Source: a virus (taxonomy: Duplodnaviria > Heunggongvirae > Uroviricota > Caudoviricetes). Taken from it: a stretch of DNA of 23,990 nucleotides. The translations under genes were made by a program, and so were the position numbers. The DNA is taken from the IMG/VR virus record IMGVR_UViG_2681813314_000025, positions 1-23,990 of that record; one strand, 5' to 3'. Within the stretch, counting starts at the first letter, position 1. Each line of letters starts with the position of its first letter. The notes beneath the pieces are model-generated. The model did not search any database. It was not told the origin of the DNA and saw only the letters and a program-made list of their open reading frames with translations. Positions 1,054 through 11,395 of this stretch are shown in pieces.

Positions 1054-1241
1054 AAAAAATGCCCTCCAGTAGAGAGCATTTTTACTGTATGTATAACCAG
1101 TGTCAATGTATGAAATCCTACGACCATACATCTCACTGAAGCCATAATGAAGTTGGCTATTCTTTTTGCTATGTGAGCATGTAACTTTTGCGGTTAACCT
1201 GCGGCTCATTTTTATTTTAGACGCAGATATAAAAGCAAAAG

Positions 1242-1433
1242 TTATCGTGAGTTTTTAGTACAGATTTTTTTGGATTTACTAATAGTTCCATCATTGCAAA
1301 CGAATTTGCCATCTGAGGTACAGTGAGAAACACCTCCCTTTTTCCCTGAGCAGGGATAATTTCTAGCATAGGTAGTTAGTGGGTTTAATAACAAAGAACA
1401 TGACAAAACCACAAAAAATACCTTACCAAGCAT
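1242..1433 (-). CDS. Small secreted cysteine-rich protein (63 aa: predicted signal peptide plus a ~40-aa mature region with 4 Cys); putative lysogeny-expressed moron
   Basis: N-terminal hydrophobic signal-like segment [23 protein letters not shown] followed by a Lys/Cys-rich region. A strong GGGAGGAAA Shine-Dalgarno lies 5 nt upstream of the ATG, and the gene starts 16 nt downstream of the cI stop, on the same strand between cI and int. The sequence is AT-rich. Confidence 0.5.
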
Positions 1434-3362: not shown

Positions 3363-3704
3363 ATGGCAATTAATGGCGCTGCAGCAACTGTTCCATTAAG
3401 CCCCGGTGAACGCCTGAATGGACTTAATCACATTGCGGAGTTAAGGGCGAAAGTTTTTGGCCTGAATATTGAGTCAGAGCTTGAGCGGTTTATTAAAGAT
3501 ATGCGTGATCCACGGGATATCAATAATGAACAAAATAAACGGGCACTGGCTGCCATATTCTTTATGGCAAAAATTCCAGCTGAACGTCATAGCATCAGCA
3601 TTAATGAGCTGACCACTGACGAAAAGCGGGAGCTGATTAAAGCAATGAATCATTTTCGTGCAGTGGTGAGCTTATTTCCCAGACGGCTAACCATGCCGAA
3701 TTAA
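3363..3704 (+). CDS. Hypothetical early protein (113 aa)
   Basis: ORF in the early operon with a GGGGGA-type purine-rich stretch upstream; no motif recognised. Confidence 0.55.
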   Translation: MAINGAAATVPLSPGERLNGLNHIAELRAKVFGLNIESELERFIKDMRDPRDINNEQNKRALAAIFFMAKIPAERHSISINELTTDEKRELIKAMNHFRAVVSLFPRRLTMPN

Positions 3705-3771
3705 CCAACTAATGAAATTAATGGCGTAAACCCGCCGGGCATCCCTTTATCTAAATTCAGGAGAATTGATT

Positions 3772-4232: not shown

Positions 4233-5086
4233 GCACCATCCTGAAATGGGCGGGAAATAAAACCGCCATAATGTCCGAACTGAAAAAGCATCTTCCTGCT
4301 GGCCCGCGACTGGTTGAACCTTTCGCGGGTTCCTGTGCAGTGATGATGGAGACGGATTACCCCAGCTATCTTGTTGCGGATATTAATCCTGATTTAATCA
4401 ACCTCTATAAAAAGGTTGCTGCTGATTGTGAGGCGTTTATATCTCGTGCCAGAGCTTTATTTGAGGAAGCAAACAGGGAGGTGGCTTATTACAACATAAG
4501 GCAGGAGTTTAATTACTCCACTGAAATTACTGATTTCATGAAAGCGGTATATTTTCTGTATCTCAATCGTCATGGTTACCGTGGATTATGTCGCTATAAC
4601 AAGAGCGGGTATTTCAACATTCCCTACGGTAATTATAAAAATCCGTATTTCCCTGAAAAAGAAATTCGCGCATTTGCAGAGAAAGCCCAGCGGGCAACGT
4701 TTATCTGCGCCAGCTTTGATGAAACGCTGGCGATGTTGAAGGCGGGGGATGTGGTGTATTGCGATCCGCCGTATGACGGTACGTTTTCCGGCTATCACAC
4801 TGATGGTTTCACTGAAGATGACCAGTATCACCTGGCATCCGTTCTTGAACATCGGTCATCAGAAGGACATCCGGTCATTGTTTCTAACAGTGACACATCC
4901 CTGATCCGTTCGCTGTATCGCAATTTTACTCACCACTACATCAAGGCAAAACGCAGCATCGGTGTGGCAGCTGGTGATAGTAAATCTGCAACAGAAATCA
5001 TTGCTGTTTCCGGGGCGCGCTGCTGGGTGGGATTTGATCCTTCGCGTGGCGTAGATAGTTCTGCTGTGTACGAGGTGCGTGTATGA
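4229..5086 (+). CDS. dam: DNA N6-adenine methyltransferase, Dam/D12 class (probable GATC specificity)
   Basis: N-terminal ILKWAGNK plus the AdoMet motif EPFAGSCAV, and the catalytic DPPY motif ([12 protein letters not shown]). The start overlaps the upstream stop (ATGA). Confidence 0.85.
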
Positions 5087-7476
5087 GTCATGACGATATG
5101 AGCAACTCTAGCGGCTTTAACGAGGCCGCTGCATCATTTTCATGGAACGGCCCGAAAAAGGCCATTAACCCTTATCTGGACCCGGCGGAATTTGCGCCGG
5201 AGTCTGCACTTTCAAACCTGATCACTCTGTATGCTGCCGATAACGAGCAGGAACAACTGCGCCGCGAGGCACTGAGTGAGCAGGTCTGGGAGCGTTATTT
5301 CTTTAATGAATCCCGTGATCCTGTCCAGCGCGAAATGGAGCAGGATAAGCTCATTAGCCGGGCAAAGCTGGCGCATGAGCAGCAGCGTTTTAATCCAGAC
5401 ATGGTCATTCTGGCTGACGTCAACGCCCAGCCTTCCCATATCAGCAAGCCGCTGATGCAACGTATTGAATACTTCAGCAGTCTGGGCAGGCCAAAGGCTT
5501 ATTCCCGCTATTTGCGTGAGACGATTAAGCCATGTCTGGAAAGACTGGAGCATGTACGCGACAGTCAGCTATCCACTTCTTTTCGCTTTATGGCAAGCCA
5601 TGAAGGGCTGGACGGCCTGCTGATCCTGCCTGAAATGAGTCAGGATCAGGTAAAACGCCTGTCCACCCTGGTAGCAGCGCATATGAGCATGTGTCTTGAG
5701 GTCGCTTGTGGTGATTTGTATGCCACCGATGACGTTAAGCCAGAAGAAATCCGCAAGACATGGGAAAAGGTGGCGGCGGAAACCCTGCGACTGGATGTCA
5801 TACCGCCTGCGTTTGAGCAACTCCGCCGGAAAAGAAACCGCCGTAAACCCGTGCCCTATGAACTTATTCCGGGTTCGCTGGCGCGTATGTTGTGCGCCGA
5901 CTGGTGGTATCGGAAATTATGGAAGATGCGTAGCGAATGGCGGGAAGAGCAGTTGCGTGCTGTTTGCCTGGTCAGCAAAAAAGCATCTCCCTATGTCAGC
6001 TATGAAGCCGTGATGCATAAACGTGAGCAGCGCCGTAAGTCGCTGGAGTTTTTCCGTTCTCATGAACTGGTGAACGAAGACGGCGACACGCTGGATATGG
6101 AAGACGTGGTAAACGCCAGCAGCAGCAACCCTGCGCATCGCCGCAATGAGATGATGGCCTGTGTTAAAGGTCTGGAGCTTATCGCGGAAATGCGCGGTGA
6201 CTGCGCCGTTTTCTACACCATCACCTGTCCGTCACGTTTCCATTCCACGCTAAATAACGGCAGGCCAAACCCGACCTGGACCAACGCGACAGTAAGACAA
6301 AGCAGCGATTATCTGGTCGGCATGTTTGCTGCATTTCGTAAGGCTATGCACAAAGCCGGGTTGCGCTGGTATGGCGTGCGGGTGGCTGAGCCGCATCATG
6401 ACGGCACAGTTCACTGGCACCTGTTGTGTTTCATGCGCAAAAAAGACCGCCGCGCCATTACTGCATTGTTGCGTAAGTTTGCCATCCGTGAAGACCGCGA
6501 GGAGCTGGGCAATAACACGGGGCCACGCTTTAAGTCTGAGCTGATAAACCCGCGCAAAGGAACGCCGACAAGCTACATTGCGAAATATATCAGTAAGAAT
6601 ATTGACGGGCGTGGTCTGGCTGGCGAGATCAGTAAGGAAACGGGTAAATCCCTGCGTGATAACGCTGAATACGTTAATGCCTGGGCGTCTCTGCATCGTG
6701 TTCAGCAATTCCGCTTCTTTGGCATTCCGGGGCGTCAGGCTTACCGTGAACTGCGATTGCTGGCTGGTCAGGCGGCAAGGCAACAGGGGGACAAAAAAGC
6801 AGGTGCGCCGGTACTGGATAACCCGCGCCTTGATGCAATCCTGGCTGCTGCTGATGCTGGTTGTTTTGCCACTTACATCATGAAGCAGGGCGGCGTACTG
6901 GTTCCCCGCAAATATCACCTCATCAGAACTGCTTATGAAATTAACGAAGAGCCGACCGCCTATGGCGATCACGGCATTCGTATTTATGGCATCTGGTCAC
7001 CCATTGCAGAGGGCAAGATCTGCACTCATGCAGTGAAGTGGAAAATGGTTCGTAAAGCCGTTGACGTTCAGGAGGCGGTAGCCGACCAGGGCGCTTGCGC
7101 CCCTTGGACTCGTGGCAATAACTGTCCCCCTGTTGAAAATATGAACAAATCAGGGGGGGATTTACCCGATATTAAAACCATGGATGAGAAGGAGCTGCAG
7201 GAATATCTCCACAACATGGGCCAGAAGGAACGGCGGGAGCTGACAGCCAGGTTGAGACTGGTAAAACCGAAGCGAAAAAAAGCATACATACAGAGTATTT
7301 CGGAGCAGCAGCGCCTGCAGCTTGAGGCAGAACTGACTGCCAGAGGGTTTGAGGGTAGTGTATCTGAGATTGATTTGCTTCTGCGTGGCGGCAGCATTCC
7401 ATCCGGTGCCGGTTTACGTATTTTTTACCGTAAACAGAGGCTGCAGGAAGATGACAAATGGCGTCGATGGTACTAA
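5083..7476 (+). CDS. Replication initiation endonuclease (P2 gpA-type HUH rolling-circle initiator)
   Basis: 797 aa, carrying an HUH-like motif ([13 protein letters not shown]) and a paired-tyrosine motif ([10 protein letters not shown]) as in gpA/phiX174 A-type nickases. It sits between the early operon and the tum/DinI region, as in P2/186. Confidence 0.9.
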
Positions 7477-7568
7477 GGATGCTGTTTAACATTTCGTGCT
7501 TTATTGACTGGAGTCAGTACATCCAATTGACTGACAAAAAAGAGTTTTACATTTTTTCTTTCCTACTA

Positions 7569-7588
7569 TACTGTTTGTATAAACAGTG
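7569..7588 (+). promoter_or_regulatory. LexA (SOS) box TACTGTTTGTATAAACAGTG overlapping a candidate -10 hexamer TATACT (7567-7572)
   Basis: CTGT-N8-ACAG with a strong match to the consensus TACTGTATATATATACAGTA, about 50 nt upstream of the ORF starting at 7635. Confidence 0.6.
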
Positions 7589-7634
7589 GGTATATGTACA
7601 GTATTTGTGTATCCGTGTAATGATAGGAGGGAAG

Positions 7635-7823
7635 ATGCAGGACTATCTTTTGGAGTCATTGAAGCTCCAGCGTATTGATTTTTTTATCAAGCTTGTAGCG
7701 GCTAGTGAGTGCAGCGACGAAGAAAAGCGGCTGGCTATCCAGTGGGTGTCCGAACTGACAGATGAGTTGATGGCGAAAATTCGCAGCCATGAATACAGCC
7801 GATCAATGGACGTTACCAGTTAA
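7635..7823 (+). CDS. Hypothetical small protein; candidate N-terminal module of a Tum-like SOS-induced antirepressor
   Basis: ATG at 7635 preceded by AGGAGGG. It lies directly downstream of the LexA box and immediately upstream of the DinI-like gene. The track's 121-aa version begins upstream of the promoter and is not used. Confidence 0.5.
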   Translation: MQDYLLESLKLQRIDFFIKLVAASECSDEEKRLAIQWVSELTDELMAKIRSHEYSRSMDVTS

Positions 7824-7835
7824 AGGGAAATCTGT

Positions 7836-8057
7836 ATGCGCATTGAAATAATGATCGATAAAGAGCAGAAGATTAGCCAGGCCACACTGGAAGCTCTTGA
7901 ATCCGAGCTCTACCGTAATTTGCGCCCTCTGTATCCCAAAACAGCAATTCGTATCCGTAAGGGCAGCGCCAATGGTGTTGAACTGAGCGGGTTAAAACTG
8001 GATGAAGACAAAAAGCGAGTAATGGAAATAATGCAGCAGGTTACATTAAAACGTTGA
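7836..8057 (+). CDS. DinI-like protein (73 aa)
   Basis: MRIEIMIDKEQKIS..LE.L..EL.... resembles recalled E. coli DinI (MRIEVTIAKT..); the size fits and the gene is in an SOS-regulated context. Confidence 0.75.
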   Translation: MRIEIMIDKEQKISQATLEALESELYRNLRPLYPKTAIRIRKGSANGVELSGLKLDEDKKRVMEIMQQVTLKR

Positions 8058-8218
8058 TCCCGATAGGATCCTATCAGAGGGAACAAGGTTGAACAACGAG
8101 TGAAGCGAGGCGTTAGGTATGGCGGTCATGATCTTCAATGGCCGCCAGCTTTGTACTGTTTGCTCAACCAGCGGGTGCAACATACTTTTCTAACTCGAAT
8201 ATAAGATAAGATTTTTTA

Positions 8219-8247: not shown

Positions 8248-8292
8248 CTAGCTAATCCTGAATGTGGGTTAGTGGAAATTACAAGGAAATAT

Positions 8293-9474
8293 ATGAAACT
8301 GACTGAGCTAACTATAAACGGTATCGGGGGGATAAAGTCCCTGTACGTAAAATTTAGGCCTGACATGAATATTATATGTGGGCCTAACGGAGTTGGAAAA
8401 TCCACACTCTTGCTTGCTGCCTCCTTTCCTTTTCTTCATGGATACACTAATAGAATAAAACGCAATGTCACTTCTGAAACAGGAAGTGTTAGTCTAATAA
8501 TAGAAGATAATTCTGTTAACTTTAATTCAGTATTAGATGTTAACGTTCATTTGCCTACAGAAACAATTCACAACTTTAATAATAACGGATTTGATAAGAG
8601 GAAACTAATAAAATTTGAAATATTACGTAACTTTGATTATAAACATCTTGAGGCGTTGAATGCAGATAAATCACTATCCGATGATGCTGTTTCGCAACAG
8701 ATTAATTTAGGTGTCAATTTACATGATATCAAGGATTGGTTTGCTAAGAGGGATTTGTTTGAAAAAGTAGATAATGGTTACGGTCCTAATACGATAAAAA
8801 ATATACATCTTGCAAGGGAGTGTATATCAATTTTAAACCCTCAGTTTTCTTACAATCGCGTCGATCCTAAATCTTACGATATTTTTGTAAATACCCCGAC
8901 CGGGGTAATATGGTATGAATATCTGTCCTCGGGATTCAAATCATGTATGAGTCTCCTTCTCGGTATTATTAAAGAGATCGAGCTTCGTTATCCGGAGAAA
9001 GATATTTACGCCCAAGAATTTGATGGAGTGATTCTTATCGATGAAATTGAGCTTCATTTGCATCCTGAGTGGCAGGCAAGAATCACTGAAGCCCTTACGA
9101 CAACATTTCCATCAGCACAATTTATTGTCACAACTCACAGCCCACATGTAGTACAGAATGCAAAACCACATCAGATCATTGCGTTAGTACCAGATAATGA
9201 TGGCACAGTGAGAGTAAAAGAACTTCCTGAAAATGGCTTGGGTTATTCTGCCTGGACAGTTGAAGAGGTTTTGTTAGATGTAATGGGGATGGAAAGCACT
9301 CTCAGTAGAAAACTACAAGAACTACTTGATAATTTCGAACGTTTTGTTGATGAAGAAAATTTCGACAAGGCGAAAGAAATTTATGATTATTTGGATATGG
9401 CATTGCATCAAAACAGTATTCTTCGTAAATCTCTTAAAATAAGCCTGATGTCAATTCGAGAGAGAGAAGAGTAA
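8293..9474 (+). CDS. ABC/OLD-type (AAA_21-like) ATPase with no fused nuclease domain; PtuA-like
   Basis: Walker A GPNGVGKST near the N-terminus, an ABC-signature-like LSSGFKS, Walker B/D-loop ILIDEIELHLHP, and an H-loop (TTHSP). There is a long insertion between Walker A and B, as in OLD/Gabija/PtuA-class ATPases. ATG at 8293 with AAGGA upstream (the track's GTG at 8272 is less likely). AT-rich. Confidence 0.8.
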   Translation: MKLTELTINGIGGIKSLYVKFRPDMNIICGPNGVGKSTLLLAASFPFLHGYTNRIKRNVTSETGSVSLIIEDNSVNFNSVLDVNVHLPTETIHNFNNNGFDKRKLIKFEILRNFDYKHLEALNADKSLSDDAVSQQINLGVNLHDIKDWFAKRDLFEKVDNGYGPNTIKNIHLARECISILNPQFSYNRVDPKSYDIFVNTPTGVIWYEYLSSGFKSCMSLLLGIIKEIELRYPEKDIYAQEFDGVILIDEIELHLHPEWQARITEALTTTFPSAQFIVTTHSPHVVQNAKPHQIIALVPDNDGTVRVKELPENGLGYSAWTVEEVLLDVMGMESTLSRKLQELLDNFERFVDEENFDKAKEIYDYLDMALHQNSILRKSLKISLMSIREREE

Positions 9475-9475
9475 A

Positions 9476-10222
9476 ATGATTAAGCTTGAACGGAACTTTA
9501 TTCCTGATTTTTTTACTCGTGTTGATCTTCTATCTTTAACTCAGGAGTTTAAAGATAATGGAACATCTGTTTGGCATCATCCGGAAGTAAAATCGGCATG
9601 TCTAAAATTAAGTAATGGCAAATGTGCATTTTGTGAGGTCAAGCTTGAAGAGGCTAGCACCTATAATGAAATTGAGCATTTTAAGGATAAAAAAAATTTC
9701 CCTGATGATGTTATTAGATGGGAAAATCTCCTTCCTTCATGCCGTCACTGTAATGGTTCAAAACAACGCCATAATGTTGTACTCAATCCTATAATAAATC
9801 CATGCAACGATTTACCGTCAGAACACCTTTATATGATAGGGTATCGTATTAAAGGTAAAACTGATTTAGGTAAAACAACAGTGGATGTTTTAAACTTTAA
9901 TCACAGGGAGCACAAGTTTATACCGCGTTGTAAAGCAGGGGAACTTATAGATAGCAGTATTGATGACGCAATAGAAAAACTTAATTGGTTTAATGAGAAT
10001 CCAAGTACTAGACGTAAAAACATTCTTATGAATCTAGTCGAGGCAATATTAGGTGAGTGTCAGAAAACATCTCCCTTTTCTGCAGTATCAGCAACAATGC
10101 TTCATCGTTCAGTCGAATATTCTTATCTGAAAGAAACCATGCAGATGCAAGGATTATGGTCAGATTATATGCAGGAACTTCATGATGAATCTTTGAGCCT
10201 GACGTTACCGTCAATTCGCTAG
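9476..10222 (+). CDS. HNH endonuclease (PtuB-like)
   Basis: Classic zinc-coordinated HNH finger: CAFCE..(12)..EIEHF ... WENLLPSCRHCNGSK. The start is 1 nt after the ATPase stop, so the two are translationally coupled. Confidence 0.8.
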   Translation: MIKLERNFIPDFFTRVDLLSLTQEFKDNGTSVWHHPEVKSACLKLSNGKCAFCEVKLEEASTYNEIEHFKDKKNFPDDVIRWENLLPSCRHCNGSKQRHNVVLNPIINPCNDLPSEHLYMIGYRIKGKTDLGKTTVDVLNFNHREHKFIPRCKAGELIDSSIDDAIEKLNWFNENPSTRRKNILMNLVEAILGECQKTSPFSAVSATMLHRSVEYSYLKETMQMQGLWSDYMQELHDESLSLTLPSIR

Positions 10223-10696: not shown

Positions 10697-11395
10697 ATGG
10701 TTATGTTAGTGGATGACTGTCCACGATGTGGATCACAAAAAATAGCGTTTGATGTTAATGGGCTGAATTGCACTAGGGTTTACAATGCATTGGGCGGGGG
10801 TAAAACATACGAGTACGAGGTCTATTGTGTTTGCCGAGAGTGTCATAAAACGACAATGTTTCTTTGCAGACCTTTAACGAAAAATAAAACTTTAGATGGC
10901 TATAATTGGGAAAGTGGAATATTCGGCTTAAAGGAAGTTGCAGAGGTTGTTAGGCCTATATCACCGGCAGACTTAGCAGTAGAGGAGCCACCAGAGTTCT
11001 TACCTGAGCATATCAATAGTGCATATGAGGAAGGGGCGAAATGTTTGGCTATAGGTTGTTATAATGCAGCAGCAACCATGTTTAGGCTTTGCCTTGATTA
11101 TGCCACAAAAGGACTTCTTCCTGATGGGGAGCAAGGGCCTGCGCAAAAAATAAGGAGAAGCCTAGGGTTAAGAATGGAGTGGTTATTTGATAATCATCTA
11201 CTGCCTGAAGCTTTAAGGGAACTAGCTGAATGCGTTAAAGATGACGGAAATGATGGAGCGCATGAAGGTATTTTGGATAAAGCTGCTGCTGAGGATCTTG
11301 AAGATTTTACCTATCTTTTTTTAGAACGGCTTTACACTGAACCTCAACGCCTTATCGAAGCCAAGACAAGGCGTGAACAAAGAAGAAACAAATAA
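10697..11395 (+). CDS. Zinc-ribbon protein with a DUF4145-like C-terminal helical domain (232 aa); cargo gene of unknown function
   Basis: N-terminal CPRCGS ... CVCRECH cysteine cluster. The C-terminal region has the R...L / GNDGAHE pattern I associate with DUF4145. Strong RBS AGGGAGGAG. It lies between candidate cos and the portal gene, converging on the portal stop with only 8 bp between stops. Confidence 0.65.
   Translation: MVMLVDDCPRCGSQKIAFDVNGLNCTRVYNALGGGKTYEYEVYCVCRECHKTTMFLCRPLTKNKTLDGYNWESGIFGLKEVAEVVRPISPADLAVEEPPEFLPEHINSAYEEGAKCLAIGCYNAAATMFRLCLDYATKGLLPDGEQGPAQKIRRSLGLRMEWLFDNHLLPEALRELAECVKDDGNDGAHEGILDKAAAEDLEDFTYLFLERLYTEPQRLIEAKTRREQRRNK

Follow-up and report, generated by a model that had tools for sequence, protein, structure and literature searches.

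A probable two-cistron tumA/tumB SOS operon with overlapping LexA boxes in a P2/186-like Escherichia coli prophage

The stretch of DNA analyzed here (the window, 23,990 nt) comes from a P2/186-like Escherichia coli prophage. A P2-type integrase gene (int) stands first, then the gene for a 186-type CI repressor, and these are followed by an apl-like ORF, CII, DUF5347, DUF2732, a DksA/TraR zinc finger protein, a Dam methylase and replication gene A (gpA), which ends at position 7476. The region of interest adjoins gene A on the same strand. It consists of a putative SOS promoter with two LexA boxes, two short ORFs (ORF1 and ORF2) and a conserved structured element (R1), and downstream of these the prophage carries its cargo, a Septu system (PtuA, 1e-151; PtuB, 1.6e-95). 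The repressor was recognized by Pfam matches to Phage_CI_repr (3e-31) and Phage_CI_C (4e-29) in a minus-strand ORF at 1449–2105, the true start of CI being probably internal to these ORF limits. Its score against Peptidase_S24, 16.1 bits, was under the cut-off of 23.3, and it is 33% identical to the CI of phage 186 and 38% identical to that of Fels-2. The view of an earlier, first-pass annotation of this DNA, that CI is of the 186 type and not an S24 peptidase, is borne out by these matches. The setting is that of a Tum module, that is, a P2/186-like phage with gpA, CII, a P2-type integrase and a non-S24 CI, and this CI is presumably the target of the ORF1 product.

Downstream of gene A, the 20-mer TACTGTTTGTATAAACAGTG at 7569–7588 on the plus strand (LexA box 1) contains the pattern CTGT-N8-ACAG (7571–7586), which is expected 0.27 times per shuffled window and was observed twice. 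With a LexA weight matrix, box 1 scored 23.3 bits and ranked as the second-best 20-mer of the window; on this scale known sites score 13.0–26.9 bits and the window has a mean of −29 (sd 9.8). The matrix, made from E. coli sites, was used for ranking only. A CTGT-N8-ACAG match at 7929–7944, inside ORF2, was also considered as a LexA site and dismissed; its score of 7.6 is below that of all known sites, and it was therefore taken as a chance match in coding sequence. The top score of the window (23.7) does not lie at tum, being found at 1083–1102, before int.

Conservation was assessed in 34 loci from different Enterobacterales species, each encoding a relative of ORF1, that were collected with a single protein as the query. 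Box 1 could be evaluated in the 33 loci with enough upstream sequence and was present in every one of them. The hexamer TTTACA, which stands at 7546–7551 (plus strand) in the window and is the candidate −35 element, lies exactly 17 nt 5′ of box 1 in 25 of these 33 loci, while the surrounding sequence diverges. It corresponds to the −35 of promoter p95 of phage 186. In the 186 record, TACTGT is annotated as the −10 of p95; it makes up the left arm of the LexA site (its first six bases), and the annotated −35 is 18 nt 5′ of TACTGT. Because of this placement, the predicted −10 of the window (within 7567–7574, plus strand) was assigned to TACTGT at 7569–7574; TATACT at 7567–7572 is an overlapping alternative with a 15-nt spacer, and TATACTGT, the −10 region, is kept in most relatives. 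By analogy with p95, bound LexA would occlude the −10 under either choice. The predicted −10 matches the consensus poorly, and the promoter was not flagged by a generic promoter scan. The first-pass annotation had described the box as near consensus and as overlapping a candidate −10; the score and conservation of the box support the former, and the latter is the very layout annotated for p95.

A second LexA box, CAGTGGGTATATGTACAGTA (7584–7603, plus strand), overlaps box 1 at an offset of 15 nt. This box had been missed in the first-pass annotation. Its score of 14.0 is close to the lower limit of the range of known sites, and a box scoring at least 13 at the same offset was found in 23 of the 34 species loci. 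The double box also occurs in Fels-2, SopEPhi and DuoHS, and a single box in 186 and PSP3. The 51-nt operator region matches 743 plasmid records; in the two that were inspected, the match lies ~40 nt 5′ of the genes for colicin N and a tRNase colicin, and the alignment of the operator to these promoters is near column-for-column. As in a colicin-type operator, there are two boxes at a 15-nt offset, overlapping or 3′ of the −10. Colicin operators are bound by two LexA dimers and are very tightly repressed (PMC2994835). By analogy, we infer that LexA binds at the window operator, that two dimers may occupy it, and that repression would be tight. The reasoning on a tight double box would also fit a gene that is lethal to the lysogen when expressed.

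The Shine-Dalgarno sequence AGGAGG (7625–7630, plus strand), read directly from the sequence, precedes ORF1, and ATAGGAGGGAA(G/A)ATG at the start of ORF1 is kept in relatives. ORF1 (7635–7823, plus strand, 62 aa) has the coordinates first reported for it. No Pfam family was matched by ORF1 and no solved relative was found in the PDB. BLASTP gave no similarity of ORF1 to 186 Tum or to TumA of PSP3. However, BLASTP is too weak for such short proteins, since PSP3 TumA was also without a match to 186 Tum. Profile methods gave a different result. With a profile built from 21 diverse ORF1 relatives as the query, hhalign aligned residues 2–52 of ORF1 to residues 2–52 of 186 Tum without gaps (probability 94.8%, E 5.3e-8), so that of the proposed similarity to Tum the profile alignment stood and the BLASTP alignment did not. 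The identity is only ~18%; common positions include E7, R13, [IV]14, C26, A34, E40 and [LI]41. Searches of PHROG pointed the same way: ORF1 matched phrog_698 (1.5e-36), phrog_8554 (2e-8) and phrog_1993 (1.8e-3), the N-terminal 61 residues of 186 Tum matched the same three families (2.4e-5, 1e-11 and 1e-22, respectively), and PSP3 TumA matched phrog_1993 (3e-32). Based on both methods, ORF1 is a homologue of the N-terminal half of 186 Tum and a TumA-type antirepressor by homology. An AlphaFold model (pLDDT 85) predicts a two-helix hairpin (helices 2–23 and 28–61) with a conserved Cys in the turn between the helices.

A contact between ORF1 and CI is to be expected of such an antirepressor, and a comparison with Fels-2 bears on where it might be. 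The window and Fels-2 share 87% identity in ORF1 but only 38% in CI, and the CI identity lies mostly in the N-terminal DNA-binding domain. That ORF1 is conserved while the identity of CI is mainly N-terminal hints that the antirepressor contacts the N-terminal domain of CI.

ORF2 (7836–8057, plus strand, 73 aa) starts 12 nt after the stop codon of ORF1, and both its position and its DinI-like nature agree with what had been claimed for it. It matched Pfam DinI (PF06183) with an E-value of 1.3e-17 and 64.3 bits (gathering cut-off 24.2), and could be aligned, as first suggested, both to 186 Tum (residues 71–139, 36% identity, E 1e-18) and to E. coli DinI (PDB 1GHH; residues 1–70, E 2e-5). The match covers positions 2–55 of the 63 positions of the DinI HMM. 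It ends there because of a 20-bp deletion at 8041/8042, between GGT repeats, in which CTGGGAGGACGACAGCTGG[T/C] was lost. The deletion shifts the frame of ORF2, and in the DNA alignment homology picks up again directly downstream. As a result, the C-terminus of ORF2 reads QQVTLKR, compared to QQVWEDDSWLH in relatives (WEDDSWLH has become TLKR), and ORF2 lacks the acidic, Trp-containing C-terminus of a full DinI domain, where the conserved motif is WEDDSW in TumB and WESADDW in DinI. Because all BLAST matches ended at 8041, a junction with the Septu cargo had also been considered as the source of this odd C-terminus, and was ruled out by the internal position of the 20-bp deletion. That ORF2 is a frameshifted allele had not been noticed in the first-pass annotation. 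The same allele occurs in four complete E. coli genomes at 99.8–99.9% identity and with the same downstream cargo.

Across the 34 species loci, the two genes differ in how regularly they are kept. ORF1 is present in all of them. Of the DinI-like gene, 17 loci have an intact copy and 3 a degraded one, and 14 loci lack it. It is this absence that identifies ORF1 as the core of the module and its DinI-like neighbour as a dispensable partner. The module as a whole was found in 1181 of 5426 complete E. coli genomes (~22%).

These data indicate that the region is very probably an SOS operon of the two-cistron tumA/tumB kind, belonging to an E. coli prophage that is P2/186-like (Peduoviridae, Fels-2-type). 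The predicted LexA operator overlaps the −10 and lies directly 5′ of the putative antirepressor gene, as it does in a Tum module. The proposal that Tum is here arranged as two cistrons is upheld, ORF1 corresponding to the N-terminal half of Tum and ORF2 to its C-terminal half; their summed length of ~135–139 aa is, as had been observed, about that of 186 Tum (146 aa). What the first-pass annotation said of 186 Tum, namely a protein of ~146 aa at the same position with a DinI-like C-terminal half, was correct (186 record; PMC3121763). In the mechanism that we propose, LexA would sit in the lysogen on the two overlapping SOS boxes (7569–7588 and 7584–7603), covering the −10 and start region. DNA damage would lead to RecA activation and LexA self-cleavage, and the promoter would fire. 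The ORF1 product would then bind the 186-type CI and stop it from binding its operators, allowing lytic transcription. ORF2 would be a co-transcribed DinI-like partner that in relatives probably tempers RecA/SOS activity, and it would not be needed for induction. The closest experimental parallel is prophage DuoHS of E. coli HS, in which either deletion of tum or a lexA(Ind-) allele abolishes induction by mitomycin C (PMC12055606). The DuoHS tum gene is ECHS_RS04495 (PMC12055606, supplement), a 62-aa ORF directly 5′ of a DinI-like gene, and ORF1 is 90% identical to it. The need for tum and for cleavable LexA was thus demonstrated by others for this orthologue and would extend to the window by analogy, in keeping with the earlier suggestion that the prophage is wired to the SOS response through LexA.

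Several other explanations of the region were weighed. One is that ORF1 and ORF2 are made as a single Tum-like fusion by readthrough of the stop codon or by frameshifting, a matter raised in the first-pass annotation as a check on whether a frameshift would fuse them. The ORFs turned out to be in the same frame already, with TAA and four sense codons between them, and their summed length is near the 146 aa of 186 Tum, both of which would suit a fusion. However, the relation of the frames is not conserved, the genes being 9, 10, 11 or 12 nt apart in relatives and 3 nt apart in PSP3, and because of this variable spacing no fusion product is expected even where the frames agree. Moreover, ORF2 has its own ribosome-binding site and ATG, and ORF1 stands alone, without a DinI-like gene, in 14 of 34 loci. 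An exhaustive search of the ORF1 family yielded 58 clusters at 50% identity, nearly all shorter than ~100 aa, and no member had its N-terminal match ahead of a DinI-sized extension. We consider a fusion product to be extremely unlikely. As its second option, the first-pass annotation had offered a DinI-like moron under SOS control. The module might then serve in essence to modulate the SOS response of the host through its DinI-like protein, with ORF1 an unrelated small ORF that has no role in induction. The DinI-like ORF is indeed the sole part recognized by standard annotation, ORF1 having no Pfam family and the name “hypothetical protein” only. Yet it is ORF1 that is invariant and homologous to the N-terminal half of Tum, it is the DinI-like gene that is often lost or degraded (including in the window), and deletion of the 90%-identical orthologue of ORF1 abolishes induction. 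The moron option was consequently given up as very improbable.

A further alternative places the control elsewhere: the LexA-like box would be inoperative, and the genes would be expressed by readthrough of the early lytic transcript of gene A. The module does lie directly 3′ of gpA on the same strand, and no promoter was called by the generic scan. This explanation is difficult to reconcile with the retention, across 33 loci whose flanks diverge, of box 1, of its spacing of 17 nt from TTTACA and, in most cases, of box 2, with the identity of the double box to the known LexA operator of colicin genes, with the block to DuoHS induction (orthologous tum) by lexA(Ind-), and with the annotation of 186 p95 as SOS-dependent. 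It is, in our judgment, very improbable. Doubt of a larger size attaches to ORF2. Since the deletion removed the conserved acidic C-terminus, the truncated protein is probably impaired, and a loss of function may be surmised from the 8 Pfam positions now missing at its end. Against this, 69 of 77 residues are intact, the Pfam score is far over the threshold and the allele has been kept in four complete E. coli genomes (99.8–99.9% identity), so that the shortened ORF2 could still be a functional RecA modulator and not a decaying allele. We think this possible, yet the less probable reading, in that the lost WEDDSWLH is the most conserved C-terminal motif of TumB and DinI, and the DinI-like gene has decayed independently in 3 other loci and is absent in 14. 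In addition, the acidic C-terminal helix of DinI was reportedly proposed by Voloshin et al. in 2001 to contact RecA.

The tumA/tumB operon, as we read it, is followed by a conserved structured element, R1 (8044–8122, plus strand), formed by a hairpin (8050–8090) and then GGTTGAACAACGAG-N4-GCGAGGCGTTAG. At 8120–8147 (plus strand), a scan and the MFE fold of 8044–8150 revealed a terminator-like, G+C-rich hairpin followed by GCTTTGT; the fold z-score of these 107 nt, with the terminator-like hairpin included, was −3.4. Analysis by RNAalifold of 18 copies of R1, in an independent MAFFT alignment, predicted a stem of 18 bp, 10 of whose pairs show both-sided changes. In 92 distinct copies, whose alignment was fitted to the model and agrees with the independent MAFFT alignment, 94.5% of cells pair, compared to 25–44% when the partners are slid, and 279 cells have both-sided changes, compared to 26–71 in the slid controls. 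The stem is rich in G-U pairs as read on the plus strand only, and its sequence is free to vary as long as pairing is preserved; the tail behind it is almost invariant. Among 81 instances examined there were 62 different hairpin sequences, and the exact tail of R1 was present in at least 120 IMG/VR contigs. In most loci, the R1 covariance model located a single plus-strand copy immediately 3′ of the tum module; in loci that lack tumB, this copy comes after tumA. One copy is present in phage 186 (after orf97) and two in PSP3, and there is none in Fels-2. Searches of Rfam gave no match to R1 at the gathering or the E-value threshold.

The position of R1 suggests some possible roles. It lies right at the boundary of the gpA-gpQ defence-gene hotspot; neither a hairpin nor LexA, Tum or DinI turned up in a text search of publications on this P2 hotspot. 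The gene that follows often takes its ribosome-binding site and ATG from the tail of R1, and in ~30% of cases this gene belongs to an 85-aa family whose function is not known (phrog_2100). R1 could represent a new kind of RNA element, such as a signal for processing, stability or translation. It could couple the cargo to the LexA-controlled transcript or insulate the cargo from it, and it could also be an anchor for the exchange of cargo cassettes.

The LexA box at 1083–1102 overlaps a perfect TTGACA on the minus strand, ~30 nt 5′ of the start codon of int. Phages from four Peduoviridae lineages retain this box, with differing flanks. In 186 and Fels-2, cI and int abut and no LexA site was found there. 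We tentatively entertain the idea, while thinking it rather doubtful, that the SOS module has these additional parts (R1 and the int LexA box) and that LexA directly controls several outputs of the prophage. If so, R1 and the int box could affect the timing of the defence cargo and of excision with respect to the SOS response.

Overall, the finding itself contains very little that is new. Its use is largely in prediction and annotation: the prophage should be inducible by DNA damage via LexA and a Tum-type antirepressor, as are 186, PSP3, Fels-2 and DuoHS; the 62-aa “hypothetical protein” of RefSeq, found in about one fifth of complete E. coli genomes, would be annotated as an antirepressor, and the operator as one of the tight, colicin-like double type. 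The split tumA/tumB SOS module is already known from PSP3, Fels-2 and DuoHS, given that the split form has been annotated or discussed for PSP3 and Fels-2 and occurs in ~22% of genomes. The window represents one more copy of it, with a damaged tumB, and adds one to the decaying copies of that gene.

In its position after gene A, in the 186-type CI of the phage and in a LexA box that forms the −10 of the promoter, the module agrees with that of 186, and the two halves of Tum, N-terminal and DinI-like C-terminal, are homologous to ORF1 and ORF2, respectively. Phage 186 differs in having one fused protein of 146 aa and a single LexA box, as opposed to two cistrons and a double box, and according to its record only full-length Tum inhibits DNA binding by CI. 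In Fels-2 and PSP3, tum is split by a stop codon, and the upstream gene of PSP3 carries antirepressor activity (PMC3121763). The PSP3 record describes tumA as “similar to 5' end 186 tum; UV induction of prophage” and lists tumB as well. The two cistrons of the window have their counterparts in tumA/tumB of PSP3, STM2728/STM2726.1 of Fels-2 and orf10/orf11 of SopEPhi. The Fels-2 and SopEPhi versions of ORF1 are 87–98% identical to that of the window and have the same double operator, whereas PSP3 has a single box and its TumA falls in another subfamily (phrog_1993). All three of these phages have a full-length DinI-like gene (77 aa), in contrast to the frameshifted, 73-aa version of the window. 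DuoHS shares the double SOS box and has a DinI-like gene 10 nt after tum, but this gene is intact and the downstream cargo is different.

Beyond the Tum modules, the operator resembles those of colicin operons (cna; ColE-type), which likewise have two overlapping SOS boxes at a 15-nt offset (window, TATACTGTTTGTATAAACAGTGGGTATATGTACAGTATTT; colicin N, TATACTGTACATAAAACCAGTGGTTATATGTACAGTATTT) and in which the repressed product is lethal, as in the window. Those operators control a bacteriocin, in contrast to the prophage antirepressor of the window, and additional regulators also act at colicin promoters. Compared to E. coli DinI (1GHH), ORF2 is without the C-terminal acidic segment and, unlike DinI, is borne on a phage and would be co-transcribed with an antirepressor. 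Finally, GfoA/GftA of the Gifsy prophages and AntC of N15 are alike in logic, in that LexA represses a small antirepressor of a non-cleavable repressor, and the Gifsy operons carry a dinI homologue too (PMC3121763).

The tum module, formed by the TumA-type antirepressor gene ORF1 and the DinI-like tumB gene, is closed by a conserved element of ~80 nt (window 8044-8122, plus strand), located where the gpA-gpQ cargo hotspot borders on the module. The element consists of a hairpin of 18 bp, which shows strong covariation and has G-U pairs on the plus strand, followed by a near-invariant tail, GGTTGAACAACGAG-N4-GCGAGGCGTTAG. Further copies were found in comparison loci L001 (6339-6419), L003, the SopEPhi locus (3666-3747), and L004, which has two (4551-4630 and 4955-5035). 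Often the gene that follows takes its ribosome-binding site and ATG from this tail. Rfam has no family for this element, and a text search of two papers on the gpA-gpQ hotspot found no mention of it.

In the window, the ATG given by the tail starts a 24-codon ORF, MAVMIFNGRQLCTVCSTSGCNILF (8120-8194). Within it, upstream of ptuA, is a weak LexA-like 20-mer, TACTGTTTGCTCAACCAGCG (8154-8173), scoring 15.0 on a weight matrix of E. coli LexA sites that serves for ranking only (known sites, 13.0-26.9). Both the ORF and the 20-mer are also found in the Leclercia adecarboxylata locus (L039). The ORF may be what is left of a former cargo gene, or it may be a leader.

The cargo directly 3' of the module is a Septu defence system, comprising PtuA (8287-9474; padloc, 1e-151) and the HNH protein PtuB (9476-10222; 1.6e-95). 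The same Septu cargo and leader occur in L. adecarboxylata and four E. coli genomes. Further downstream, a DUF4145 protein (10697-11395) weakly resembles PD-T7-4, a defence candidate (1.2e-6); E. coli LR882997 encodes a protein of equal length, with the same Pfam DUF4145 match, in the same place before the portal gene (L005 6567-7265).

Upstream of the module's SOS promoter we noted a direct repeat, ATTGACTG, with copies 23 nt apart (7503-7510 and 7526-7533), and then an A-tract (7536-7541) that adjoins the -35. The second repeat position reads TTGACAGATAAAAAA in relatives. The repeat may function like an UP element, or it may provide a second -35.

The window's top-scoring LexA box, TACTGTATGTATAACCAGTG (1083-1102; matrix score 23.7), overlaps a perfect -35, TTGACA (1101-1106, minus strand), just upstream of the integrase gene (int ATG, 1053-1051), and is kept in four Peduoviridae lineages. 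Phages 186 and Fels-2, in which cI lies directly next to int, lack the box. These observations suggest that int expression is SOS-controlled. In the window a 63-aa ORF (1242-1433, minus strand) is inserted between cI and int. Its product has a signal-peptide-like N-terminus, several cysteines and no Pfam match. The ORF appears to be a small moron setting int apart from the cI transcript.

Comparison of the window with Fels-2 (loci L002, L168) revealed that the ORF1 antirepressor (7635-7823) is far better conserved than its presumed target, CI (1449-2105): identity is 87% for ORF1 and 38% for CI, and what CI shares lies mainly in its N-terminal DNA-binding domain.
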